Shown: positions 45-11,726 of the stretch, in pieces | Position numbering within the stretch: the first letter of the stretch is position 1 | How the letters are laid out: the number at the start of each line of letters is the position of its first letter | UHGV virus genome: UHGV-1586087 | DNA: 11,726 nucleotides | Direction: 5' to 3' (one strand) | Source: a virus | The notes under the pieces: model-generated | What the model was told of the DNA's origin: nothing | What the model saw: the letters and a program-made list of their open reading frames with translations, nothing else | Database searches by the model: none | Program-made: the position numbers and the translations under genes

Positions 45-407
45 ACCGGTGGTGCTGTAACGCTTTTCCAGAAACGCATTACCGAACACCAGAAAATCCA
101 GCACAAAGCGGCTGAAATCCTGCTGAGAAAGCCACGGATGCGGAATAAACGTTGAAGCCAGAATATTGCGTTTAACGTAAATCGGCGAGCTGTGATGCAC
201 GGCAGCACGCAGGCTTTTTGCCAGACCGGTAAAGCTGACCGGTGGCTCATACCATCTGCCGTTACTGATGCACTCGACGTAATCCAGAATGTCACGGCGG
301 TCGAGAACCGGCACCGGCTCGCCAAAGGTGAATGCCTCCATTTTCGGTGCACTGGCGGTCATTGTTTTTGCCGCAGGTTGCGGTGTTTTCCCTTTTTTCT
401 TGCTCAT
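45..407 (-). CDS. Q: Portal (capsid portal vertex) protein, N-terminal part only; 5'-partial window artefact, gene continues beyond the insert end
   Basis: Minus-strand ORF with ATG at 407..405. Translation MSKKKGKTPQPAAKT...DYVECISNGRWYEPP is recognised as the N-terminus of P2 gpQ. It lies downstream of and coupled to P, as in P2. The last residues of the supplied ORF (...GLSLIHI) are translated from adapter, not phage DNA. Confidence 0.85.
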
Positions 408-2179
408 CAGTAAAACTCCAGAATGGTGGATGTCAGCGGGGTGCTGATACTGGCGGTGAGTGGCTCATTTAACAGGGCGTGCATGGTCGCCCAGGCGAGG
501 TCGGCGTGGCTGGCTTCCTCGCTGCGGCTGGCCTCATAGGTGGCACTGCGTCCGCTGCTGGTCATGGTCTTGCGGATAGCCATAAACGAGCTGGTGATGT
601 CGGTGGCGCTGACGTCATATTCCAGACAGCCACGGCGGATGACGTCTTTTGCCTTGAGCACCATTGCGGTTTTCATTTCCGGCGTGTAGCGGATGTCGCG
701 CGCGGCGGGATAGAACGAGCGCACGAGCTGGAACACGCCGACACCGAGGCCGGTGGCATCAATACCGATGTATTCGACGTTGTATTTTTCGGTGAGTTCG
801 CGGATGGATTCAGCCTGGGTGGCAAAGTCCATGCCTTTCCACTGGTGACGCTCAAGTATTCTGAATTTGCCACCGGCCACCACCGGCGGTGCCAGTACCA
901 CGCATCCGGCACTGTCGCCACGGTGTGACGGGTCGTAACCAATCCATACCGGGCGGGAGCCGAACGGATTGGCGGCAAAGGGTGCATAGTCTTCCCATTC
1001 TTCCAGCGTGTCGACCATGCAGCGTTGCAGCTCCTCGAACGGGAACACCGACGCCTTGTCGTCAACAAATTCACACATGAACAGGTTTTTAAAATCGTCG
1101 GCGCTGTTTTCACGTTTGAGCTGCTCAATGTCGAACAACGTGCAGCCGCCTTTCAGCGCGTCCTCAATGGTGACAATCTGCCGCCACTGGCCGTCCGCAC
1201 AGAGAAGACCTCCGGCAAGTGCGTTATGACTGACGTCGATTTCCACGCGTTCGGCGGCGCTGGCGCGTCCCCGGTTAAACAGTTCACCGGACCAGAACGG
1301 ATAGGCGTCGTGCGCCAGCGTGGACGGGGTGGAGAAATAGGTCGAGCGCAGGTGACTCTGTGAGGCCATACCTGATGCCACCTTTCGCAGTACCTGAAAA
1401 TTCGGGATCCAGAAAATCTCGTCGACGTACAGGTCGCCGTTATGGCTCTGTGCGGTGTTGGAGTTGGTGCCGAGAAAAATCAGTTTTGCGCCGTTATTGC
1501 CCAGGACAATCGGGTCACCGGTCAGGTCAACGTCAACCAGACGGGCAAAGGCGATGATGTATTCGCGGAACACATACGCCTGCGTTTTACTGGCCGACAG
1601 AAAAATCTGGTTATGACCGGTTTTCAGGGCGCGCAGCAGCGCCTCGCGGGAAAAATAAAACGTTGCGCCAATCTGGCGGGATTTCAGGATATCGCGGATG
1701 CGGTGCTCAAGCCCGGCGCGATACCAGTGCAACTGATATTCGAAAGACTGCTCAAAGAAAATCTGCTCCAGCTTTTCGATGGCCTCGTCACTGAAAAAAT
1801 TCTTTTTCGGTTTGCGACGCCCGCCTTTGTTGCGGTTAGCGACGTTCGGATTAAGGTCTGCCTCGTTGCCGGTCTGGCTGTAGCGGTTGACCCGTGCCAG
1901 TCGTTCAATCTGGCGTCCGAGCAGGTCAATTTCCTTGAAGTCACCGCCGGTTTTCTGCGGTTTGATGATGAGCTGGGTCAGCCGCGCTTCCAGACTCATT
2001 TCGACACGGCTGATGGGGGCAACGCTGTCCCAGCCGTCGCGCTGTTTCCAGCTCTGCACCGTCGGGCGTTTCATCTGCAACATGGCGGCAATCTGCGGCA
2101 CGGAAAACCCCTGCCAGTACAGCAGCGCCGCCTGACGACGCGGGTCGTGTAAAAGAGTGGTGTCTGTGGTGATGGTCAT
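407..2179 (-). CDS. P: Terminase large (ATPase) subunit
   Basis: 600-aa minus-strand ORF in the track begins at a TTG (2209..2207). An in-frame ATG at 2179..2177 (MTITTDTTLLHDP...) has a GAGG Shine-Dalgarno about 6 nt upstream and gives 590 aa. Walker-B-like motif GDLYVDE is present. The TGA stop (409..407) overlaps the Q ATG (407..405). Recognised as P2 gpP. Confidence 0.9.
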   Translation of the reverse strand: MTITTDTTLLHDPRRQAALLYWQGFSVPQIAAMLQMKRPTVQSWKQRDGWDSVAPISRVEMSLEARLTQLIIKPQKTGGDFKEIDLLGRQIERLARVNRYSQTGNEADLNPNVANRNKGGRRKPKKNFFSDEAIEKLEQIFFEQSFEYQLHWYRAGLEHRIRDILKSRQIGATFYFSREALLRALKTGHNQIFLSASKTQAYVFREYIIAFARLVDVDLTGDPIVLGNNGAKLIFLGTNSNTAQSHNGDLYVDEIFWIPNFQVLRKVASGMASQSHLRSTYFSTPSTLAHDAYPFWSGELFNRGRASAAERVEIDVSHNALAGGLLCADGQWRQIVTIEDALKGGCTLFDIEQLKRENSADDFKNLFMCEFVDDKASVFPFEELQRCMVDTLEEWEDYAPFAANPFGSRPVWIGYDPSHRGDSAGCVVLAPPVVAGGKFRILERHQWKGMDFATQAESIRELTEKYNVEYIGIDATGLGVGVFQLVRSFYPAARDIRYTPEMKTAMVLKAKDVIRRGCLEYDVSATDITSSFMAIRKTMTSSGRSATYEASRSEEASHADLAWATMHALLNEPLTASISTPLTSTILEFY

Positions 2180-2352
2180 GAATACCTCGCCGTGATGAAT
2201 ACACGGCAAGGCTACTGAGTCGCGCCCCGCGATTCGCTAAGGTGCTGTTGTGTCAGTGATAAGCCATCCGGGACTGATGGCGGAGGATGCGCATCGTCGG
2301 GAAACTGATGCCGACATGTGACTCCTCTAATCACTATTCAGGACTCCTGACA
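2180..2352. promoter_or_regulatory. Divergent late-promoter region between P (leftward) and O (rightward); expected site of activator (Ogr-type)-dependent late promoters
   Basis: 173-bp non-coding gap between divergently transcribed operons. Contains a perfect 10-bp palindrome GATGCGCATC (2286-2295) flanked by direct repeats ACTGATG (2273-2279 and 2304-2310), and TGT-rich sequence at 2246-2253. I could not find a perfect TGT-N12-ACA element. Promoter placement follows from P2 biology, not a verified motif. Confidence 0.45.
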
Positions 2353-3207
2353 ATGGCAAAAAAAGTCTCAAAATTCTTTCGTATCGGCGTTGAGGGTGAC
2401 ACCTGTGACGGGCGTGTCATCAGTGCGCAGGATATTCAGGAAATGGCCGAAACCTTTGACCCGCGAGTCTATGGTTGCCGCATTAACCTGGAACATCTGC
2501 GCGGCGTCCTGCCTGACGGTATTTTTAAGCGTTATGGCGATGTGGTCGAACTGAAGGCCGAAAAGATTGACGATGATTCGGCGCTGAAAGGCAAATGGGC
2601 GCTGTTTGCGAAAATCACCCCGACCGATGACCTTATCGCGATGAACAAGGCCGCGCAGAAGGTCTATACCTCAATGGAAATTCAGCCGAACTTTGCCAAT
2701 ACCGGCAAATGTTATCTGGTGGGTCTGGCCGTCACCGATGACCCGGCAAGCCTCGGCACGGAATACCTGGAATTCTGCCGCACGGCAAAACACAACCCCC
2801 TGAACCGCTTCAAATTAAGCCCTGAAAACCTGATTTCAGTGGCAACGCCCGTTGAGCTGGAATTTGAAGACCTGCCTGAAACCGTGTTCACCGCCCTGAC
2901 CGAAAAGGTGAAGTCCATTTTTGGCCGCAAACAGGCCAGCGATGACGCCCGTCTGAATGACGTGCATGAAGCGGTGACCGCTGTTGCTGAACATGTGCAG
3001 GAAAAACTGAGCGCCACTGAGCAGCGCCTCGCTGAGATGGAAACCGCTTTTTCCGCACTTAAGCAGGATGTGACTGACAGGGCGGATGAAACCAGCCAGG
3101 CATTCACCCGCCTGAAAAACAGTCTCGACCACACCGAAAGTCTGACCCAGCAGCGCCGCAGCAAGGCCACCGGTGGTGGCGGTGACGCCCTGATGACGAA
3201 CTGCTGA
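2353..3207 (+). CDS. O: Capsid scaffolding protein
   Basis: ATG at 2353 (MAKKVSKFFRIGVEGDTCDGRV...) with AGGA 9-10 nt upstream gives 284 aa. The track ORF starts upstream at 2287, probably a spurious extension. Recognised as P2 gpO. Confidence 0.9.
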   Translation: MAKKVSKFFRIGVEGDTCDGRVISAQDIQEMAETFDPRVYGCRINLEHLRGVLPDGIFKRYGDVVELKAEKIDDDSALKGKWALFAKITPTDDLIAMNKAAQKVYTSMEIQPNFANTGKCYLVGLAVTDDPASLGTEYLEFCRTAKHNPLNRFKLSPENLISVATPVELEFEDLPETVFTALTEKVKSIFGRKQASDDARLNDVHEAVTAVAEHVQEKLSATEQRLAEMETAFSALKQDVTDRADETSQAFTRLKNSLDHTESLTQQRRSKATGGGGDALMTNC

Positions 3208-3265
3208 CCGGCGTCAGTCAGTCCGGGAAAACCTTCACGATTAACCCTTAATTTCAGGAAAAACT

Positions 3266-4339
3266 ATGCGCCAGGAAACCCGCTTTAAATTTAATGCCTA
3301 CCTGTCCCGTGTTGCCGAACTGAACGGCATCGACGCCGGTGATGTGTCGAAAAAATTCACCGTTGAACCGTCGGTCACCCAGACCCTGATGAACACCATG
3401 CAGGAGTCCTCTGACTTTCTGACCCGCATCAACATTGTGCCGGTCAGCGAAATGAAAGGGGAAAAAATTGGCATCGGTGTCACCGGCTCCATCGCCAGCA
3501 CCACCGACACCGCCGGTGGCACCGAGCGTCAGCCGAAGGACTTCTCGAAGCTGGCGTCAAACAAGTACGAATGCGACCAGATTAACTTCGATTTTTATAT
3601 CCGCTACAAAACGCTGGACCTGTGGGCGCGTTATCAGGATTTCCAGCTCCGTGTCCGTAACGCCATTATCAAACGCCAGTCCCTTGATTTAATCATGGCC
3701 GGTTTTAACGGCGTGAAGCGTGCCGAAACCTCTGACCGCAGCAGCAATCCGATGCTGCAGGATGTGGCGGTCGGCTGGCTGCAGAAATACCGCAATGAAG
3801 CCCCGGCGCGCGTGATGAGTAAGGTCACTGACGAGGAAGGCCGCACCACCTCTGAGGTTATCCGCGTGGGTAAGGGCGGTGATTATGCCAGCCTCGATGC
3901 ACTGGTGATGGATGCGACCAACAACCTGATTGAACCGTGGTATCAGGAAGACCCGGACCTTGTGGTGATTGTGGGACGTCAGCTACTGGCGGACAAGTAT
4001 TTCCCCATCGTTAACAAGGAGCAGGATAACAGCGAAATGCTGGCCGCTGACGTCATCATCAGCCAGAAACGCATCGGTAACCTGCCGGCGGTACGCGTCC
4101 CGTACTTCCCGGCGGATGCGATGCTCATCACGAAGCTGGAAAACCTGTCCATCTACTACATGGATGACAGCCATCGCCGCGTGATTGAGGAAAACCCGAA
4201 ACTCGACCGCGTGGAGAACTACGAGTCAATGAACATTGATTACGTGGTGGAAGACTACGCCGCCGGTTGTCTGGTGGAAAAAATCAAGGTCGGTGATTTC
4301 TCCACACCGGCTAAGGCGACCGCAGAGCCGGGAGCGTAA
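3266..4339 (+). CDS. N: Major capsid protein
   Basis: 357-aa ORF with AGGA about 7 nt upstream of the ATG. Translation MRQETRFKFNAYLSRVAELNGIDAGDV... is recognised as P2 gpN, in the expected position after O. Confidence 0.92.
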   Translation: MRQETRFKFNAYLSRVAELNGIDAGDVSKKFTVEPSVTQTLMNTMQESSDFLTRINIVPVSEMKGEKIGIGVTGSIASTTDTAGGTERQPKDFSKLASNKYECDQINFDFYIRYKTLDLWARYQDFQLRVRNAIIKRQSLDLIMAGFNGVKRAETSDRSSNPMLQDVAVGWLQKYRNEAPARVMSKVTDEEGRTTSEVIRVGKGGDYASLDALVMDATNNLIEPWYQEDPDLVVIVGRQLLADKYFPIVNKEQDNSEMLAADVIISQKRIGNLPAVRVPYFPADAMLITKLENLSIYYMDDSHRRVIEENPKLDRVENYESMNIDYVVEDYAAGCLVEKIKVGDFSTPAKATAEPGA

Positions 4340-4342
4340 CCG

Positions 4343-5086
4343 ATGACGAGTCCCGCACAGCGCCACATGATGCGGGTCTCGGCAGCGATGACCGCGCAGC
4401 GGGAAGCCGCCCCGCTGCGACATGCAACTGTCTATGAGCAGATGCTGGTTAAGCTCGCCGCAGACCAGCGCACACTGAAAGCGATTTATTCAAAAGAGCT
4501 TAAGGCCGCGAAAAAACGCGAACTGCTGCCGTTCTGGTTGCCGTGGGTGAACGGCGTGCTGGAGCAGGGCAAAGGTGCACAGGATGACATTCTGATGACG
4601 GTCATGCTGTGGCGTCTGGATACCGGCGATATTGCCGGTGCGCTGGAGATTGCCCGTTATGCCCTGAAGTACGGTCTGACCATGCCGGGTAAACACCGCC
4701 GCACCCCGCCGTACATGTTCACCGAGGAGGTGGCGCTTGCGGCCATGCGTGCTCACGCTGCCGGTGAGTCTGTGGATACCCGCCTGCTGACGGAGACCCT
4801 TGAACTGACCGCCACGGCTGACATGCCTGATGAAGTGCGCGCAAAGCTGCACAAAATCACCGGTCTGTTTCTGCGTGACGGTGGTGATGCCGCCGGTGCG
4901 CTGGCTCACCTGCAACGTGCGACACAGCTCGACTGTCAGGCAGGCGTCAAAAAAGAGATTGAACGACTGGAGCGGGAGCTGAAACCGAAGCCGGAGCCGC
5001 AGCCCAAAGCGGCCACCCGTACCCCGCGTAAGACCCGGAGCGTGACACCGGCAAAACGTGGACGCCCGAAAAAGAAAGCCAGTTAA
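4343..5086 (+). CDS. M: Terminase small (endonuclease/DNA-recognition) subunit
   Basis: 247-aa ORF starting 3 nt after the N stop, with GGAG 8 nt upstream inside the N 3' end. Lys/Arg/Pro-rich C-terminal tail. Recognised as P2 gpM. Confidence 0.88.
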   Translation: MTSPAQRHMMRVSAAMTAQREAAPLRHATVYEQMLVKLAADQRTLKAIYSKELKAAKKRELLPFWLPWVNGVLEQGKGAQDDILMTVMLWRLDTGDIAGALEIARYALKYGLTMPGKHRRTPPYMFTEEVALAAMRAHAAGESVDTRLLTETLELTATADMPDEVRAKLHKITGLFLRDGGDAAGALAHLQRATQLDCQAGVKKEIERLERELKPKPEPQPKAATRTPRKTRSVTPAKRGRPKKKAS

Positions 5087-5116
5087 CAACCGAATGCGCC
5101 CCGCGCCAGGGCGGCA

Positions 5117-5157
5117 CGCCGGTCAGTGAGGGTGAATCACCTGACGCTGTACCGGCG
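5117..5157. repeat. Nested inverted repeats in the M-L spacer: outer arms CGCCGGT / ACCGGCG (5117-5123 and 5151-5157) enclosing the palindrome GGTGA-a-TCACC (5131-5141)
   Basis: Read directly from the sequence. GC-rich, no trailing T-run. Function unknown. Confidence 0.5.
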
Positions 5158-5185
5158 TCCACCGCCCGACTTTTCAGAGGTAGTC

Positions 5186-5695
5186 ATGATGACGCTGATT
5201 ATTCCGCGAAAGGAGGCTCCCGTGTCCGGTGAGGGTACGGTGGTCATCCCGCAACCGGCAGGCGACGAGCCGGTGATTAAAAACACGTTCTTTTTTCCCG
5301 ATATCGACCCGAAGCGCGTCCGGGAACGTATGCGCCTTGAGCAGACCGTCGCCCCCGCCCGTCTGCGTGAGGCCATCAAGTCAGGCATGGCGGAGACGAA
5401 TGCGGAGCTGTACGAGTACCGCGAACAGAAAATTGCCGCCGGTTTTACGCGTCTGGCGGACGTTCCGGCGGACGACATCGACGGTGAAAGCATCAAAGTT
5501 TTTTACTACGAGCGCGCCGTGTGTGCGATGGCGACCGCGTCGCTTTATGAGCGTTATCGCGGCGTGGATGCCAGTGCGAAAGGCGACAAGAAGGCTGACA
5601 GCATTGACAGCACCATTGATGAACTGTGGCGGGATATGCGCTGGGCGGTGGCGCGTATCCAGGACAAGCCGCGCTGCATCGTGAGTCAAATCTGA
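5186..5695 (+). CDS. L: Head completion / capsid stabilisation protein
   Basis: ATG at 5186 (MMTLIIPRKEAPVSGEG...) with GAGG 5 nt upstream gives 169 aa. The track ORF starts at an upstream in-frame GTG (5126), which I treat as an extension. Stop overlaps the X start (TGATGA at 5693-5698). Confidence 0.88.
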   Translation: MMTLIIPRKEAPVSGEGTVVIPQPAGDEPVIKNTFFFPDIDPKRVRERMRLEQTVAPARLREAIKSGMAETNAELYEYREQKIAAGFTRLADVPADDIDGESIKVFYYERAVCAMATASLYERYRGVDASAKGDKKADSIDSTIDELWRDMRWAVARIQDKPRCIVSQI

Positions 5696-5898
5696 TGAAG
5701 ACCTTTGCGCTACAGGGCGACACGCTCGACGCCATTTGTGTCCGGTATTACGGGCGCACTGAGGGCGTGGTCGAGGCCGTGCTCGCCGCAAATCCGGGAC
5801 TGGCTGAACTGGGCGCGGTGCTGCCGCACGGCACCGCCGTCGAACTGCCCGACGTTCAGACCGCGCCCGTGGCTGAAACTGTCAATCTGTGGGAGTAA
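5695..5898 (+). CDS. X: Tail protein X, small LysM-like protein
   Basis: ATG at 5695 overlapping the L stop gives 67 aa (MKTFALQGDTLDAICVRYYGRTEGVV...LPHGTAVELPD). The pattern GDTL...I...YG...NP...L..G..L.LP resembles a LysM fold. Recognised as P2 gpX. Confidence 0.85.
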   Translation: MKTFALQGDTLDAICVRYYGRTEGVVEAVLAANPGLAELGAVLPHGTAVELPDVQTAPVAETVNLWE

Positions 5899-5901
5899 CG
5901 C

Positions 5902-6183
5902 ATGACAGCAGAAGAAAAAAGCGTCCTGTCGCTTTTCATGATTGGGGTGCTGATTGTTGTCGGCAAGGTGCTTGCCGGTGGTGAACCCATCACCCCGCGT
6001 CTGTTTATCGGGCGCATGTTGCTCGGTGGTTTTGTCTCGATGGTTGCCGGTGTTGTTCTGGTGCAGTTTCCTGACCTGTCACTGCCTGCGGTGTGCGGCA
6101 TCGGCTCCATGCTGGGTATCGCCGGTTATCAGGTGATTGAGATTGCCATTCAGCGCCGCTTTAAGGGCAGGGGGAAACCGTAA
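5902..6183 (+). CDS. Y: Holin
   Basis: 93 aa with about three hydrophobic helices and a basic C-terminus (QRRFKGRGKP). GGAG 6 nt upstream. Sits directly upstream of the endolysin. Recognised as P2 gpY. Confidence 0.88.
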   Translation: MTAEEKSVLSLFMIGVLIVVGKVLAGGEPITPRLFIGRMLLGGFVSMVAGVVLVQFPDLSLPAVCGIGSMLGIAGYQVIEIAIQRRFKGRGKP

Positions 6184-6680
6184 TGCCGGTAATCAACACG
6201 CATCAGAATATCGCTGCCTTTCTCGACATGCTGGCCGTGTCCGAAGGGACGGCGAATCATCCGCTGACGAAAAACCGGGGCTATGACGTGATAGTCACCG
6301 GACTGGACGGGAAGCCGGAAATCTTCACCGACTACAGTGACCACCCGTTCGCACATGGCCGACCGGCGAAGGTGTTTAACCGTCGCGGTGAAAAATCCAC
6401 GGCCTCCGGTCGCTATCAGCAGCTTTACCTGTTCTGGCCGCATTACCGCAAACAGCTTGCCCTGCCGGATTTCAGTCCGTTGTCACAGGACAGACTCGCC
6501 ATTCAGTTGATCCGCGAACGCGGTGCGCTGGATGACATCCGGGCGGGGCGCATTGAACGCGCCATTTCACGCTGTCGCAATATCTGGGCGTCCCTGCCGG
6601 GTGCCGGTTACGGTCAGCGTGAGCATTCACTGGAAAAACTGGTCACCGTCTGGCGTACCGCTGGCGGCGTACCGGCTTAA
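6183..6680 (+). CDS. K: Endolysin (phage lysozyme/muramidase family)
   Basis: 165 aa; ATG overlaps the Y stop (TAATG at 6181-6185). Recognised as P2 gpK. The catalytic class is taken from knowledge of P2, not from motifs I verified here. Confidence 0.88.
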   Translation: MPVINTHQNIAAFLDMLAVSEGTANHPLTKNRGYDVIVTGLDGKPEIFTDYSDHPFAHGRPAKVFNRRGEKSTASGRYQQLYLFWPHYRKQLALPDFSPLSQDRLAIQLIRERGALDDIRAGRIERAISRCRNIWASLPGAGYGQREHSLEKLVTVWRTAGGVPA

Positions 6681-6694
6681 ACGGAGTAAACACC

Positions 6695-7120
6695 ATGAAG
6701 AAATTATCCCTTTCACTGATGCTGAACGTGTCGCTGGCGCTGATGCTGGCACTGTCCCTGATTTACCCGCAGAGCGTGGCCGTCAGTTTTGTCGCCACCT
6801 GGGCGATTCTGGCGACGGTTATCTGTGTGGTTGCCGGTGGTGTCGGCGTGTATGCCACGGAGTATGTACTGGAGCGCTACGGGCGGGAGCTGCCGCCGGA
6901 ATCGCTGGCCGTGAAGATTGTCACGTCGCTGTTTTTGCAGCCGGTGCCGTGGCGCAGACGGGCGGCGGCTCTGGTGGTGATGGTGGTGACGTTTATCTCG
7001 CTGGTCGCTGCCGGGTGGATTTTTACCGCGCTGATTTATCTCGTGGCGTCGGTGTTCTTCCGGCTGATACGTACGGCCTGCCGTCAGCGTTTTGAGGGGC
7101 GGGAACCATGTCAAAGCTGA
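6695..7120 (+). CDS. lysA: Lysis-timing membrane protein LysA (antiholin-like, multi-pass)
   Basis: 141 aa with three to four long hydrophobic segments (LSLMLNVSLALMLALSLIY, WAILATVICVVAGGVGVYA, AALVVMVVTFISLVAAGWIFTALIYLVASVFF). GGAG 8 nt upstream. Position and sequence match P2 lysA. Confidence 0.82.
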   Translation: MKKLSLSLMLNVSLALMLALSLIYPQSVAVSFVATWAILATVICVVAGGVGVYATEYVLERYGRELPPESLAVKIVTSLFLQPVPWRRRAAALVVMVVTFISLVAAGWIFTALIYLVASVFFRLIRTACRQRFEGREPCQS

Positions 7121-7533
7121 TGATTGTGCTGGTTGTGTTGTTATCGCTGGCTGTGGCGGGACTGTTTCTGGTGAAGCATGAAAACGCCAGCCTGCGCGTC
7201 TCGCTGGACAGGGCAAACAATGTCGCCAGCGGGCAGCAGACGACCATCACCATGCTGAAAAACCAGCTTCATGTTGCCCTTACCAGGGCAGACAAAAACG
7301 AGCTGGCGCAGGTGGCACTGCGTCAGGAGCTGGAGAACGCCGCGAAGCGTGAAGCACAGCGCGAGAAAACCATCACGAGGTTACTCAATGAAAACGAAGA
7401 TTTTCGCCGCTGGTACGGCGCTGACCTGCCTGATGCTGTGCGCCGGTTGCACCAGCGTCCGGCCTGCACCGACGCCAGTGATTGTCCACAACGCCTGCCC
7501 GAAAGTGAGCCTTTGCCCGATGCCGGGCAGTGA
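7108..7533 (+). CDS. lysB: Rz-like inner-membrane spanin (i-spanin) LysB
   Basis: 141 aa with an N-terminal transmembrane segment (LMIVLVVLLSLAVAGLFLV), then a charged coiled-coil-like region and a Pro-rich C-terminus. Overlaps the lysA 3' end by 13 nt. Matches P2 lysB. Confidence 0.85.
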   Translation: MSKLMIVLVVLLSLAVAGLFLVKHENASLRVSLDRANNVASGQQTTITMLKNQLHVALTRADKNELAQVALRQELENAAKREAQREKTITRLLNENEDFRRWYGADLPDAVRRLHQRPACTDASDCPQRLPESEPLPDAGQ

Positions 7534-7678
7534 CCCGCAGACGAACGGCGATTTAAGTGCCGATATCCGGCAGCTTGAAAACGCGCTGGCACGCTGTGCC
7601 AGCCAGGTAAAAATGATTAAACACTGTCAGGACGAAAACGATGCTCAAACCCGACAGCCTGCGCAGGGCGCTGACTGA
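7388..7678 (+). CDS. lysC: Rz1-like outer-membrane lipoprotein spanin (o-spanin) LysC, in the +1 frame overlapping the lysB 3' end and the R 5' end
   Basis: ATG at 7388 with GAGG 7 nt upstream gives 96 aa (MKTKIFAAGTALTCLMLCAGCTS...), with a lipoprotein-type signal, Cys-containing lipobox-like LCAGC and a Pro-rich mature part. The track ORF (7271-7678) is the same frame with a spurious upstream extension. Confidence 0.8.
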   Translation: MKTKIFAAGTALTCLMLCAGCTSVRPAPTPVIVHNACPKVSLCPMPGSDPQTNGDLSADIRQLENALARCASQVKMIKHCQDENDAQTRQPAQGAD

Positions 7679-8108
7679 TGCCGTCACGGTGCTGAAAACC
7701 AGTCCAGAGATGCTTCGGATATTCGTGGATAACGGGAGTATTGCCTCCACGCTGGCGACGTCGCTGTCGTTCGAAAAGCGTTACACGCTCAATGTGATTG
7801 TGACCGACTTTACCGGTGATTTTGACCTGCTCATCGTGCCGGTGCTGGCGTGGCTGCGGGAAAATCAGCCCGACATCATGACCACCGACGAAGGCCAGAA
7901 AAAGGGCTTCACGTTTTATGCAGACATCAACAATGACAGCAGCTTTGATATCAGCATCAGTCTGATGCTGACCGAGCGCACGCTGGTCAGCGAGGTTGAT
8001 GGTGCGCTGCATGTGAAGAATATCCCGGAACCCCCGCCGCCGGAGCCGGTCACCCGCCCGGTGGAGCTTTATATCAATGGCGAACTGGTGAGCAAGTGGG
8101 ATGAATGA
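7641..8108 (+). CDS. R: Tail completion protein R
   Basis: 155 aa; ATG at 7641 lies inside the lysC 3' end. Recognised as P2 gpR. Confidence 0.88.
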   Translation: MLKPDSLRRALTDAVTVLKTSPEMLRIFVDNGSIASTLATSLSFEKRYTLNVIVTDFTGDFDLLIVPVLAWLRENQPDIMTTDEGQKKGFTFYADINNDSSFDISISLMLTERTLVSEVDGALHVKNIPEPPPPEPVTRPVELYINGELVSKWDE

Positions 8109-8553
8109 GTTTAAGCGTTTTGAAGACCGGCTGACCGGACTGATTGAATCGCTGTCACCGTCAGGGCGTCGGCGACTGAGTGCCGAACTGGCGAAACGTC
8201 TGCGTCAGAGTCAGCAGCGTCGGGTGATGGCACAGAAAGCCCCGGACGGCACACCCTACGCGCCACGTCAGCAGCAGAGCGCCAGAAAAAAGACCGGTCG
8301 CGTTAAGCGAAAAATGTTTGCGAAACTTATCACCAGTCGTTTTTTGCATATCCGCGCCAGCCCTGAACAGGCATCAATGGAGTTTTACGGCGGAAAGTCA
8401 CCGAAAATCGCCAGTGTGCATCAGTTTGGTCTGTCGGAAGAAAACCGGAAGGACGGTAAGAAAATTGATTATCCGGCGCGTCCTCTGCTCGGCTTTACCG
8501 GTGAGGATGTGCAGATGATTGAAGAGATTATCCTGGCTCACCTCGACCGTTAG
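8101..8553 (+). CDS. S: Tail completion protein S
   Basis: 150 aa; start overlaps the R stop (ATGAATGA at 8101-8108). Recognised as P2 gpS. Confidence 0.88.
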   Translation: MNEFKRFEDRLTGLIESLSPSGRRRLSAELAKRLRQSQQRRVMAQKAPDGTPYAPRQQQSARKKTGRVKRKMFAKLITSRFLHIRASPEQASMEFYGGKSPKIASVHQFGLSEENRKDGKKIDYPARPLLGFTGEDVQMIEEIILAHLDR

Positions 8554-8584
8554 TTGTGCCATTCCCGACACCTCATCGTCACAT

Positions 8585-8608
8585 TGCCGCCGGTATGACC
8601 CGGCGGCA
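8585..8608 (+). terminator. GC-rich hairpin in the S-V spacer (stem GCCGCCGG / CCGGCGGC, 6-nt loop); candidate terminator or attenuator for the O-to-S operon, possibly overlapping the V late promoter
   Basis: Perfect 8-bp inverted repeat (8586-8593 and 8600-8607), extended by a T-A pair at 8585/8608. The downstream sequence is only weakly T-rich (catccttcccgtt), so intrinsic-terminator status is uncertain. Confidence 0.35.
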
Positions 8609-8619
8609 TCCTTCCCGTT

Positions 8620-9255
8620 ATGAACACTCTCGCAAATATTCAGGAACTCGCGCGCGCACTGCGCAACATGATCCGCACCGGCATTATCGTCGAAACCGAC
8701 CTTAACGCCGGTCGCTGCCGTGTGCAGACCGGCGGCATGTGCACCGACTGGCTTCAGTGGCTGACCCATCGCGCCGGACGTTCGCGCACATGGTGGGCAC
8801 CTTCCGTGGGGGAACAGGTGCTGATTCTGGCCGTGGGCGGTGAACTCGACACGGCGTTCGTTCTGCCGGGGATTTATTCCGGCGATAACCCCGCGCCGTC
8901 TGCGTCGGCGGATGCCCTGCATATCCGTTTCCCTGACGGGGCGGTGATTGAATATGAACCCGAAACCAGTGCACTCACGGTAAGCGGAATTAAAACAGCC
9001 AGCGTGACGGCTTCTGATTCTGTTACTGCCACGGTGCCGGTGGTCATGGTGAAAGCATCAACCCGCGTCACCCTGGACACACCGGAGGTGGTCTGCACCA
9101 ACAGGCTGATTACCGGCACGCTGGAAGTGCAGAAGGGCGGGACGATGCGCGGCAACATTGAACACACCGGCGGTGAACTCTCATCAAACGGTAAGGTACT
9201 GCATACCCATAAACACCCCGGCGACAGCGGCGGCACAACCGGGAGTCCTTTATGA
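8620..9255 (+). CDS. V: Baseplate central spike protein V
   Basis: 211 aa, recognised as P2 gpV. The C-terminal His-rich tip HTHKHPGDSGG is consistent with the metal-binding spike apex described for P2 gpV. Confidence 0.9.
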   Translation: MNTLANIQELARALRNMIRTGIIVETDLNAGRCRVQTGGMCTDWLQWLTHRAGRSRTWWAPSVGEQVLILAVGGELDTAFVLPGIYSGDNPAPSASADALHIRFPDGAVIEYEPETSALTVSGIKTASVTASDSVTATVPVVMVKASTRVTLDTPEVVCTNRLITGTLEVQKGGTMRGNIEHTGGELSSNGKVLHTHKHPGDSGGTTGSPL

Positions 9256-9599
9256 CAGCGCGTTATCTCGGAATGAATCGCAGTGATGGCCTGACTGTCA
9301 CTGACCTTGAGCATATCAGCCAGAGTATCGGCGATATCCTGCGCACACCGGTCGGCTCACGGGTGATGCGTCGTGATTACGGCTCGTTGCTGGCGTCAAT
9401 GATTGACCAGCCGCAGACCCCGGCGCTTGAGTTGCAGATTAAGGTCGCCTGTTACATGGCCGTGCTGAAATGGGAACCCCGCGTCACCCTGTCATCCGTC
9501 ACCACGGCGCGCAGTTTTGACGGGCGAATGACGGTCACGTTAACCGGCCAGCACAACGACACCGGCCAGCCACTTTCGTTAACCATCCCTGTGAGTTGA
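9252..9599 (+). CDS. W: Baseplate wedge protein W (T4 gp25-like)
   Basis: 115 aa; ATGA overlap with the V stop (9252-9255); GGGAG 6 nt upstream. Recognised as P2 gpW. Confidence 0.9.
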   Translation: MTARYLGMNRSDGLTVTDLEHISQSIGDILRTPVGSRVMRRDYGSLLASMIDQPQTPALELQIKVACYMAVLKWEPRVTLSSVTTARSFDGRMTVTLTGQHNDTGQPLSLTIPVS

Positions 9600-9603
9600 A
9601 ACC

Positions 9604-10512
9604 ATGCCGATTATCGACCTGAACCAGCTACCCGCACCGGATGTGGTCGAGGAGCTGGACTTTGAAACCATTCTTGCCGAACGCAAGGCGACACTGATTT
9701 CCCTTTACCCGGAAGACCAGCAGGAGGCGGTCGCCCGTACCCTGACGCTGGAATCTGAGCCTCTCGTCAAACTGCTGGAGGAAAATGCTTATCGTGAGCT
9801 TATCTGGCGTCAGCGTGTGAATGAGGCTGCACGGGCGGTGATGCTGGCCTGTGCCGCCGGTAATGACCTTGATGTGATTGGTGCCAATTACAACACCACA
9901 CGCCTGATTATCACCCCGGCAGATGATTCGACCCTCCCGCCGACACCGGCCGTGATGGAATCTGACACCGATTATCGTCTGCGTATTCAGCAGGCGTTTG
10001 AAGGTTTAAGCGTCGCCGGGTCGGTGGGGGCCTATCAGTATCATGGTCGAAGTGCCGACGGGCGTGTCGCAGATATCTCTGTCACCAGTCCTTCTCCGGC
10101 CTGCGTCACCATCTCTGTGCTGTCACGTGAAAATAACGGTGTGGCATCCGAAGACCTGCTGGCGGTGGTGCGCAACGCCCTTAATGGTGAGGACGTGAGA
10201 CCGGTGGCCGACCGTGTGACCGTGCAGTCTGCCGTCATCGTTGAATACCAGATAAATGCCACGCTTTACCTTTACCCTGGCCCCGAAAGCGAACCCATTC
10301 GCGCTGCCGCCGTGAAAAAACTGGAAGCGTATATCACGGCACAGCACCGGCTGGGGCGCGACATCCGACTGTCTGCCATTTATGCCGCTTTGCATGTGGA
10401 AGGCGTGCAGCGTGTCGAACTGGCTGCACCGCTGGCCGACATCGTGCTCAACAATACGCAGGCGTCTTTCTGTACCGAATACAGCGTCGTGACCGGAGGC
10501 TCGGATGAGTGA
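9604..10512 (+). CDS. J: Baseplate assembly protein J (T4 gp6-like wedge)
   Basis: 302 aa, recognised as P2 gpJ; starts 4 nt after the W stop. Confidence 0.9.
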   Translation: MPIIDLNQLPAPDVVEELDFETILAERKATLISLYPEDQQEAVARTLTLESEPLVKLLEENAYRELIWRQRVNEAARAVMLACAAGNDLDVIGANYNTTRLIITPADDSTLPPTPAVMESDTDYRLRIQQAFEGLSVAGSVGAYQYHGRSADGRVADISVTSPSPACVTISVLSRENNGVASEDLLAVVRNALNGEDVRPVADRVTVQSAVIVEYQINATLYLYPGPESEPIRAAAVKKLEAYITAQHRLGRDIRLSAIYAALHVEGVQRVELAAPLADIVLNNTQASFCTEYSVVTGGSDE

Positions 10513-11116
10513 TTCGCGACTGCTGCCGACCGGCTCATCACCGCTTGAAGTCGCTGCCGCAAAAGCCTGTGCGGAAATTGAAAAAACGCCGGTCAGTATT
10601 CGTGAGCTGTGGAACCCGGACACCTGCCCGGCAAATCTGCTGCCGTGGCTGGCGTGGTCATTTTCGGTTGACCGCTGGGATGATAAGTGGCCGGAAGCGA
10701 CAAAACGCGCTGTTATCCGCGATGCGTATTTCATTCACTGCCATAAGGGCACTATAGGCGCAATCCGGCGTGTGGTGGAGCCGCTCGGCTATCTGATTGA
10801 GGTGAGGGAGTGGTGGCAGCTCAACGAGGAGCCGGGGACGTTCCGCATCGTTGTTGGCGTGCTTGAGCAGGGTATTACCGAGGAAATGTATCAGGAGCTG
10901 GAGCGCCTCGTTGCTGATGCAAAACCGGCAAGCCGCCATCTGACGGGACTGGCTATCAGTTTAAGTACAACCGGCAACATTTTTGCCGGTGCGGGATGCT
11001 ATCACGGTGACGCCCTGACGGTTTATCCCTACACCCCGGAGGCCATTATTGTCGGAGGGGATTATTTCCCGGCCTCGGCCATTCATTTAATTGATAACCT
11101 GAGAGTAAACGCATGA
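10505..11116 (+). CDS. I: Baseplate / tail-fibre attachment protein I
   Basis: 203 aa; ATG at 10505 overlaps the J 3' end by 8 nt. The N-terminal two thirds are recognised as P2 gpI-like. I recall P2 gpI as somewhat shorter, so the C-terminus may differ; this is unverified. Confidence 0.82.
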   Translation: MSDSRLLPTGSSPLEVAAAKACAEIEKTPVSIRELWNPDTCPANLLPWLAWSFSVDRWDDKWPEATKRAVIRDAYFIHCHKGTIGAIRRVVEPLGYLIEVREWWQLNEEPGTFRIVVGVLEQGITEEMYQELERLVADAKPASRHLTGLAISLSTTGNIFAGAGCYHGDALTVYPYTPEAIIVGGDYFPASAIHLIDNLRVNA

Positions 11117-11678
11117 CAGTGAAATACTACGCCATTCTGACTAATCAGGGCGCAGCACGGCTGGCTAACGCGACGATGCTCGGCAGTAAGCTGAATCTGA
11201 CGCAAATGGCCGTTGGTGATGCGAATGGTGTCTTGCCGACACCAGACCCGGCACAGACAAAACTGATTAACCAGAAACGCATCGCGCCGCTGAATCTTCT
11301 GAGTGTTGACCCGAACAACCAGAGCCAGATTATTGCGGAGCAAATCATCCCTGAGAACGAGGGCGGATTCTGGATCCGTGAGATTGGGCTTTATGATGAT
11401 GAAGGCGTACTCATTGCGGTGGCGAACTGCCCGGAAACGTACAAACCGCAGTTGCAGGAAGGCAGTGGTCGTACCCAGACTATCCGCATGATTCTGGTTG
11501 TCACGAATACCGAAGCTATTACGCTGAAAATCGACCCGTCGGTGGTACTGGCGACCCGTAAATACGTGGATGATGAAGTCCTGGAATTAAGGCTGTATGT
11601 GGATGATCAGATGAGAAACCACATTGCCGCACAGGATCCTCATACCCAGTATGCACAGAAACATAATCCGACATTTAC
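11113..11678 (+). CDS. H: Tail fibre protein, N-terminal 188 codons only; 3'-partial, open to the insert end
   Basis: ATG at 11113 overlaps the I stop (ATGA). My own translation gives MTVKYYAILTNQGAARLANATMLGSKLNLTQMAVGDANGVLP...EGGFWIREIGLYDDEGVLIAVAN...GSGRTQTIRMILVV... with no stop before the adapter. Conserved phage tail-fibre N-terminal motifs are present (MAVGD, GGFW.RE.GLYDD.G.LIAVAN, EGSGR.QT.RM). It is absent from the ORF track because no stop is reached. Confidence 0.85.
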
Positions 11679-11726
11679 CTGTCTCTTATACACATCTCCG
11701 AGCCCACGAGACTCGACGTCATCTCG
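11679..11726. other. Synthetic Illumina Nextera adapter: Tn5 mosaic end CTGTCTCTTATACACATCT (11679-11697), CCGAGCCCACGAGAC (11698-11712), 8-nt index-like TCGACGTC (11713-11720), start of P7 ATCTCG (11721-11726). Not biological.
   Basis: Exact match, read directly, to the reverse-complement Nextera read-2 adapter layout as I know it. Confidence 0.95.

Follow-up and report, generated by a model that had tools for sequence, protein, structure and literature searches.

The window analysed here is the whole of the 11,726-nucleotide stretch of virus genome UHGV-1586087. It is the late-gene region of a pro483-type Peduovirus prophage or phage (Q'-P-O-N-M-L-X-Y-K-lysA-lysB-R-S-V-W-J-I-H'), and our subject is the tail-fibre module at its right-hand end. 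The gene order is that of phage P2: part of Q, the minus-strand gene P, and next O, N, M, L, X, Y, K, lysA, lysB (with lysC embedded in it), R, S, V, W, J and I, with codons 1-189 of H at the end. This order and the high identity to P2 place the window among Peduovirus late and baseplate regions, and 72 phage records cover at least 80% of it. Gene J (9604-10512, plus strand) encodes the P2-type baseplate wedge protein Baseplate_J (302 amino acids; Pfam PF04865). Its product is 98% identical to P2 gpJ, and it stands on the backbone side of the junction described below. Gene I follows at 10505-11116, with a product of 203 amino acids (176 for P2 gpI), and is itself overlapped by the start of gene H.

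Compared with P2 (AF063097) by blastn, the window is 97.65% identical over 45-8555 and 95.1% identical over 8620-10941, and shows no match after 10941. The identity holds at about 97% until 10794 and is about 71% across 10795-10941. A maximum chi-square scan of 8620-10941 placed the breakpoint at 10795, between codons 97 and 98 of gene I: 72 of the 2175 positions to its left differ from P2 (3.3%), compared with 42 of 147 to its right (28.6%; Fisher p = 1e-23). Base by base, a run of 35 bases identical to P2 at 10760-10794 is followed by dense mismatches from 10795. The mismatch list, a six-phage DNA alignment and the maximum chi-square scan together delimit a crossover zone at 10760-10795 (plus strand), which lies in the conserved patch GTGGAGCCGCTCGGCTATCT. 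This patch encodes part of the RRVVEPLGY motif and is common to all gpI types; in the six-phage alignment it comprises the best-conserved gene I nucleotides among the P2-, pro483-, Gemsvirus- and 186-type sequences. Homologous recombination of diverged phages could be resolved in a patch of this kind. At 10658-10759, immediately upstream of the breakpoint, the divergence from P2 is raised (13 of 138 nucleotides in codons 52-97 of gene I versus 4 of 153 in codons 1-51), with just two amino-acid changes as the outcome. This may reflect an older exchange tract or patches of heteroduplex repair beside the main crossover.

A preliminary description of this DNA had suspected a mosaic junction with respect to P2 at the tail-fibre module, falling in the C-terminal half of gpI and the N-terminus of gpH, downstream of proteins near-identical to those of P2. 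The step at 10795 bears this out, in kind as well as in position, and the upstream part is indeed close to P2, with a nucleotide identity of about 97% over 45-10794 and the 98% identity of gpJ. The protein length of 203 residues that it gave for gpI, possibly longer than in P2, was also right.

Gene I is best described as a hybrid. Codons 1-97 (10505-10794, plus strand) form a P2-type N-terminal half, the predicted helical part of a Tri2/BW3-like wedge protein, in which 95 of 97 residues are identical to P2 gpI (98%). By amino-acid identity, codons 98-203 and the stop codon (10795-11116, plus strand) belong to the 'long' type that 186-like (Eganvirus) and Gemsvirus phages have: residues 98-175 share 63% identity with P2, and the C-terminal half is 78-88% identical to Eganvirus and Gemsvirus gpI. 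The protein ends in a 28-residue C-terminal extension, YTPEAIIVGGDYFPASAIHLIDNLRVNA (11030-11113), which P2 gpI does not have. Residues 7-143 match the Pfam family Tail_P2_I (PF09684) with 189.6 bits for a cut-off of 20.6, and residues 3-176 match Tri2 of the R2 pyocin (PA0619; 6u5b_0, E = 5.6e-41), to which gpI is homologous.

A structural model of gpI was built with AlphaFold2 on a 62-sequence alignment; the model obtained from the single sequence was unusable, with a mean predicted local distance difference test score (pLDDT) of 50.6. The alignment improved only the N-terminal half of the model, which has helices at residues 13-94 and a first strand at residues 96-102, and block means of pLDDT of 82-95 over residues 11-80 and of 68 over residues 81-100. 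This is suggestive of a breakpoint that roughly matches the end of the predicted helical part, in a model that is too weak for a domain boundary to be called. A Foldseek search of the PDB with this model gave pyocin Tri2 as the top match with a poor global superposition (TM, the template-modelling score, of 0.27-0.34). We discarded it as additional support, as only the expected pyocin Tri2 was returned and nothing beyond the sequence match.

Gene H begins at 11113 in an ATGA overlap with the stop codon of gene I, where P2 has a 10-nucleotide I-H spacer. The 189 codons present (11113-11679, plus strand), truncated by an adapter, encode the N-terminal baseplate-attachment domain of the tail fibre and are 99% identical at the amino-acid level to Gemsvirus 500465-2. 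Residues 1-150 match positions 1-150 of the PF12571 profile (E = 2.3e-63, 213.1 bits for a cut-off of 23), a full-length match to the phage tail-collar fibre protein, N-terminal domain. A sequence search of the PDB with the H fragment returned no chain, even at E <= 1. The N-terminus quoted in the preliminary description, MTVKYYAILTNQGAARLANATMLGSKLNLTQMAVGDANGVLP..., is the sequence encoded from 11113, and the P2 gpH N-terminus that it gave, MSIKFRTVITTAGAAKLAAATAPGRRKVGITTMAVGDGGGKLPVP, matches AF063097 exactly; the divergence that it saw between the two is genuine, residues 26-170 being 51% identical to P2 gpH. In its H N-terminal domain, the window type is nearer to the Pseudomonas P2-like phage Dobby (61% amino-acid identity) than to P2 (about 52%), and the P2 fibre N-terminus may be an atypical form within the family. 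The same description took the locus to set host range, to be the most informative part of the window and to be truncated. The tail-fibre module is there and H is cut short, by a sequencing adapter at 11679; the captured piece, however, is the baseplate-attachment region, with the receptor-binding part lying beyond the truncation. The H piece in the window is the baseplate-binding part of a fibre gene that is almost certainly invertible; it is the constant part, not the host-range part.

A long gpI (202-203 amino acids, with the C-terminal extension) and an I/H overlap are also found in 186-like Eganvirus and in Gemsvirus phages. The H N-terminus shares 99% identity with that of Gemsvirus 500465-2 (CP025901), a phage whose gpJ is only 54% identical to that of the window, and Gemsvirus-like loci combine H N-termini that are 97-100% identical and I C-terminal halves that are 87-89% identical with a gpJ that is only 54-55% identical. 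Both marks of a mosaic junction are therefore found here, namely an abrupt and statistically supported change in divergence and a diverged side that is present on unrelated backbones. With respect to Gemsvirus 500465-2, maximum chi-square and sliding identity located a second, independent junction at 10992 (plus strand), at about codon 163 of gene I, with a divergence of 23.3% to its left and 4.9% to its right (Fisher p = 1.4e-18). Gemsvirus or Eganvirus as direct donor of the whole swapped segment was ruled out, as 10795-10990 is only about 80-83% identical to both. In two loci of the IMG/VR database (L091 and L121), gpI is 100% identical to that of P2, gpJ has an identity of only 68-69% or 87%, and the H N-terminus is 75% identical to that of P2; further junctions therefore exist on both sides of gene I.

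The junction recurs in named phages and in bacterial genomes. The phages pro483, MET_P1_103_31, S164, KC618326 and vB_EcoM-640R3 are collinear with the window, with 97.3-98.0% identity over its whole phage part (45-11679). Over 10505-11678 these five phages (seven records) are 97.5-98.6% identical to it, which assigns the module to the pro483 type, and sliding identity to pro483 and its relatives stays at 0.91-1.00 without a step through J, I and H. A junction-spanning probe (10700-11679) is covered to at least 80% in 857 of 5426 complete Escherichia coli genomes, and 138 records match it at 99% identity or more; for the whole window the best match is 98.5%. The exact 203-residue gpI is already public as 'phage tail protein I [Escherichia coli]' and belongs to a 225-member cluster; 29 IMG/VR contigs carry the junction, with a gpI 96-100% identical to that of the window. 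The hybrid is a real mosaic junction, but it belongs to an already known and established lineage (species Peduovirus pro483 of the International Committee on Taxonomy of Viruses, ICTV), present in about one in six complete E. coli genomes. According to the preliminary description, uniform identity to a single reference phage across J, I and H would have meant that its P2 sequence was inaccurate. Such uniform identity exists, at 97.5-98.6% in the five phages named above, yet that P2 sequence is accurate: the uniformity arises because the hybrid is an established common lineage.

The combination of gpI and gpH types was surveyed in 240 IMG/VR loci (L008-L247), taken as the best 80 matches to each of three probes (the gpI alignment, P2 gpI and the H fragment of the window), together with seven reference loci. 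Gene J, residues 1-97 of I, residues 98 to the end of I and residues 1-160 of H were classified for each locus, and the removal of duplicates left 194 distinct I-H sequences. A long gpI C-terminal half is combined with a window-type H N-terminus in 125 of them and a short C-terminal half with a P2-type H in 69, with no discordant combination among the 194. The long type occurs on three backbone groups, in which gpJ is 98-100%, 75-81% and 54-55% identical to that of the window. The junctions at 10795 and 10992 are both inside gene I and leave the C-terminal end of gpI joined to H.

Published structures give this pairing a possible meaning. Receptor-binding proteins attach to BW3 (T4 gp7, PA0619 or P2 gpI), and the N-terminal parts of BW2 and BW3 form a helical bundle, that of BW3 bundling with the gp6-like pair (PMC10811340). 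In diffocin, the corresponding single-copy protein contacts the fibre via its C-terminal region (PMC10996793). The fibre's N-terminal portion fixes it to the baseplate, and residues 1-164 of the R2 fibre suffice for mounting a P2 fibre tip (PMC6116203). As in these homologous baseplates, the N-terminal half of gpI would bundle with the gpJ pair in the wedge, and its C-terminus would be the docking site for the fibre N-terminus. The junction most likely lies inside I rather than at the I/H boundary because the gpI C-terminus would dock the fibre N-terminus, so that both would have to be inherited together. We infer that the C-terminal half of gpI and the N-terminus of gpH are, on balance, probably a docking pair that must travel together.

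Beyond the point where the window stops, its relatives carry an invertible cassette. Downstream of H, pro483, MET_P1_103_31, E. coli ABWA45 and vB_EcoM-613R3 have one tail-fibre assembly gene, then, on the opposite strand, another assembly gene with a promoterless fibre tip, and after these a DNA invertase and FI. The invertible segment is bounded by 27-nucleotide inverted repeats (TTCTCGCATACCTTGGTTTGGGAGAAG / CTTCTCCCAAACCAACGTTTATGAAAA), with the left repeat at about nucleotide 815 of H. The crossover site in these relatives, of the type TTCTCGCATACCTTGGTTTGGGAGAA, is located about 250 nucleotides past the window end, and its sequence may resemble the gix, hix and pix sites. The inter-repeat segment is inverted in pro483 with respect to MET_P1_103_31, between collinear flanks. 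The pro483 cassette encodes a serine recombinase (Resolvase and HTH_7), two Caudo_TAP chaperones, and alternative Gp53-like_C and Collar tips. Homology between pro483 and P2 resumes just upstream of FI; the 3' end of I, H, G and Z/fun of P2 (12630-17571) were therefore replaced as one block of about 3.5 kb. Among the loci surveyed, a crossover site is found inside H in 35 of the 36 that have a Peduovirus backbone and a window-type H, and in none of the 65 with a P2-type H. That the window itself might hold such a site was considered and ruled out: a search of the window with up to three mismatches gave no match, because it stops at nucleotide 567 of H, about 250 nucleotides short of the site. 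The H gene of the source almost certainly continues into a Gin/Pin/Hin-type invertible cassette with alternative tips, two chaperones and a serine invertase, which would switch host range by DNA inversion in place of the H-G-Z/fun of P2. Inversion has been shown experimentally in P2-like prophages of enteropathogenic E. coli (EPEC) and in e14 (PMC4272514), and another study describes how fibres are swapped, with an invertase, at the Z/fun hotspot of P2 (bioRxiv 10.1101/2024.10.15.618418). Among the IMG/VR relatives, the crossover site sits at different places in H (nucleotides of about 596, 710, 815, 1031/1037 and 1121, and mostly 1037 or 1121 in Gemsvirus-like loci); hence the constant fibre part is longer in some lineages than in others.

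We may wonder whether the step at 10795 is biological at all. The adapters at both ends, the signature of an untrimmed Nextera library, put the quality of the assembly in question, template switching by assemblers can occur in short conserved patches such as the one at the junction, and multiple P2-like prophages, in up to four places per genome, are present in many E. coli genomes. An assembler could have joined two co-resident P2-like prophages at the conserved patch of gene I. We find such a chimera scarcely conceivable, since the junction is the same base for base in five independently sequenced phages and in complete E. coli chromosomes, which number in the hundreds and were for the most part closed with long reads, with at least 99% identity across 10700-11679 in the 138 records, and is carried by the 29 IMG/VR contigs as well. 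It is also very improbable that the C-terminal half of gpI and the N-terminus of gpH owe their difference to fast evolution inside the P2 lineage, driven by diversifying selection and with no horizontal transfer. Diversifying selection is common in tail-fibre genes, and both proteins stay homologous to their P2 forms throughout (63% and 51% amino-acid identity). However, mismatches rise from 3.3% to 28.6% over a few nucleotides without a gradient; the 28-residue extension and the different overlap of I and H also speak against divergence in place, as do the recurrence of both segments at 87-100% amino-acid identity on backbones with a gpJ of only 54-80% and the replacement, in relatives, of the whole downstream region (H, G and Z/fun) by unrelated genes. 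We favour the replacement of the tail-fibre module relative to P2 by recombination, presumably homologous, with its left crossover inside gene I at 10760-10795. It makes gpI a hybrid in which the N-terminal half is of P2 type, and the C-terminal half, like the N-terminal domain of gpH, of the 'long' type.

The joint inheritance of the two segments calls for a more cautious reading. The position of the junction could be a by-product of local nucleotide homology, the C-terminal half of gpI and the N-terminus of gpH being freely interchangeable between types. Both junctions, at 10795 and at 10992, adjoin locally conserved sequence, the two segments are adjacent so that co-transfer is expected without selection, and pyocin engineering has shown that fibres tolerate heterologous C-terminal parts (PMC6116203). 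We regard such pure linkage as possible though unlikely, given the 194 distinct sequences without a discordant pair over three backbone groups, and given that neither of the independent junctions falls at or past the I/H boundary, the C-terminal tail of gpI being kept with the H N-terminus. Moreover, structural papers put fibre attachment on the gpI-type protein (PMC10811340; PMC10996793), and engineered fibres had to keep the cognate N-terminal 164 residues (PMC6116203). Several points nevertheless weigh against the interpretation that we prefer. The perfect association could reflect physical linkage and a lack of homology between the types (at most about 70% identical), and rare hybrids could have been missed by a similarity-based sampling of loci. 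The gpI model is of moderate confidence (mean pLDDT of 64.7, and below 50 for residues 140-203). No sampled phage closely matches 10795-10990 (about 80-83% at best), and the short form of P2 could equally well be the derived one. Finally, one of the 36 comparable loci has no crossover site, and the cassette itself lies beyond the window. Taken together, a pro483-type late region whose tail-fibre module was replaced by recombination, with co-inherited gpI and gpH segments that probably dock and an invertible cassette beyond, is very probably the correct explanation of the locus.

We would extend this only tentatively to the proposal that the C-terminal tail of gpI (including the 28-residue extension) and the N-terminal domain of gpH act throughout Peduoviridae as a 'socket and plug' compatibility system with two alleles. 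If this were true, only matched pairs would assemble fibres, every natural transfer of a fibre module among P2-, 186- and Gemsvirus-type backbones would need to bring the end of gene I along, and the minimal portable unit for re-targeting P2-like phages and tailocins would be roughly 10992-11600.

The two ends of the window are those of a sequencing library. Positions 1-44 are the Illumina Nextera read-1 adapter (TCGTCGGCAGCGTC-AGATGTGTATAAGAGACAG), with phage homology beginning at base 45, and positions 11679-11726 the Nextera read-2 adapter (CTGTCTCTTATACACATCT-CCGAGCCCACGAGAC...). Tn5 mosaic ends are found at 26-44 on the minus strand and, as an exact match, at 11679-11697 on the plus strand. 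All phage matches start at base 45 and stop at 11679, and 11678 is the last unambiguous phage base. The contig has therefore kept untrimmed Nextera adapters, TCGTCGGCAGCGTCAGATGTGTATAAGAGACAG at its left end and CTGTCTCTTATACACATCTCCGAGCCCACGAGAC at its right end, arranged as one library fragment would be (read-1 adapter, insert, read-2 adapter). Q and H are cut off because these adapters flank the contig, which is an artefact of the library or assembly and not biology.

Two other features were noted upstream of the module. The S-V intergenic region is just 64 nucleotides long (8556-8619), in place of P2 9370-10307, which contains the O-operon terminator, the non-essential orf30 and the annotated pV activator-binding site. 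Within this short region lies a GC-rich hairpin (GCCGCCGG-TATGA-CCCGGCGGC), and a consensus promoter and terminator scan of 8400-8750 gave no match. Both pro483 and MET_P1_103_31 align with it gap-free, and E. coli ABWA45 has a 741-nucleotide open reading frame between S and V instead. In addition, the C-terminal half of J (9945-10544) and the lysA/lysB boundary (6945-7244) are only 91-95% identical to P2, pro483 and MET_P1_103_31, compared with 96-100% for the window outside these patches; they are small-scale patchwork typical of the family.

The analysis is mainly of value for annotation: the contig is a pro483-type Peduovirus and not P2 proper, the truncation of H is adapter contamination, and the fibre gene, as captured, would be the constant part of an invertible locus that switches host range. 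Mosaicism of tail fibres in the P2 family and DNA invertases at this locus are already documented, and only a mildly new angle is added by the observation that the C-terminal end of gpI is consistently transferred along with the N-terminus of the fibre. The two natural junctions inside gene I give a practical hint of where to cut for fibre swaps in P2-like phages or R-type tailocins.

Among known phages, pro483 (KR073661 / NC_028943), MET_P1_103_31, S164, KC618326 (the 'P2' prophage of O157:H43 T22) and vB_EcoM-640R3 share with the window the hybrid gene I, the I/H overlap, the H N-terminus and the empty S-V site. They differ from it by about 2% scattered nucleotide differences and by small patches at 9945-10544 and 10756-10768, and the window lacks everything past codon 189 of H. 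P2 itself has the same gene order and about 97% nucleotide identity from Q to codon 97 of gene I, with the nearly identical gpJ already described, whereas its gpI of 176 residues, its 10-nucleotide I-H spacer, its H N-terminus (51% amino-acid identity) and orf30 between S and V set it apart; downstream, it has a non-invertible H-G followed by Z/fun. The Eganvirus-like phages vB_YpM_MDG45 and vB_EcoM-613R3 have a long gpI and an ATGA-type overlap as in the window, with an H N-terminus at 73-79% amino-acid identity. The backbones of Gemsvirus 500465-2 and of Eganvirus are distant from that of the window (gpJ 54% and about 80% identical, respectively), and 40 of 49 186-like loci have no crossover site in H.

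The R2 pyocin offers a parallel for the baseplate side. PA0619 (Tri2; PDB entries 6u5b and 6u5k), a triplex protein present as a single copy in the R2 baseplate, is a clear homologue of gpI, although with 177 amino acids it resembles the short form of P2 and is devoid of the 28-residue extension, and the N-terminal domain of the R2 fibre PA0620 has a role in baseplate attachment, as in gpH (PMC6116203). For the cassette, the closest parallels are the switches of phage Mu (G segment and Gin), P1 (C segment and Cin) and e14 (P region and Pin). The window itself contains no element of such a switch. Like Mu, P1 and e14, the relatives of the window combine a constant fibre N-terminus with inverted crossover sites, alternative tips and chaperones, and an adjacent serine invertase, and both orientations of the segment are found among database genomes.

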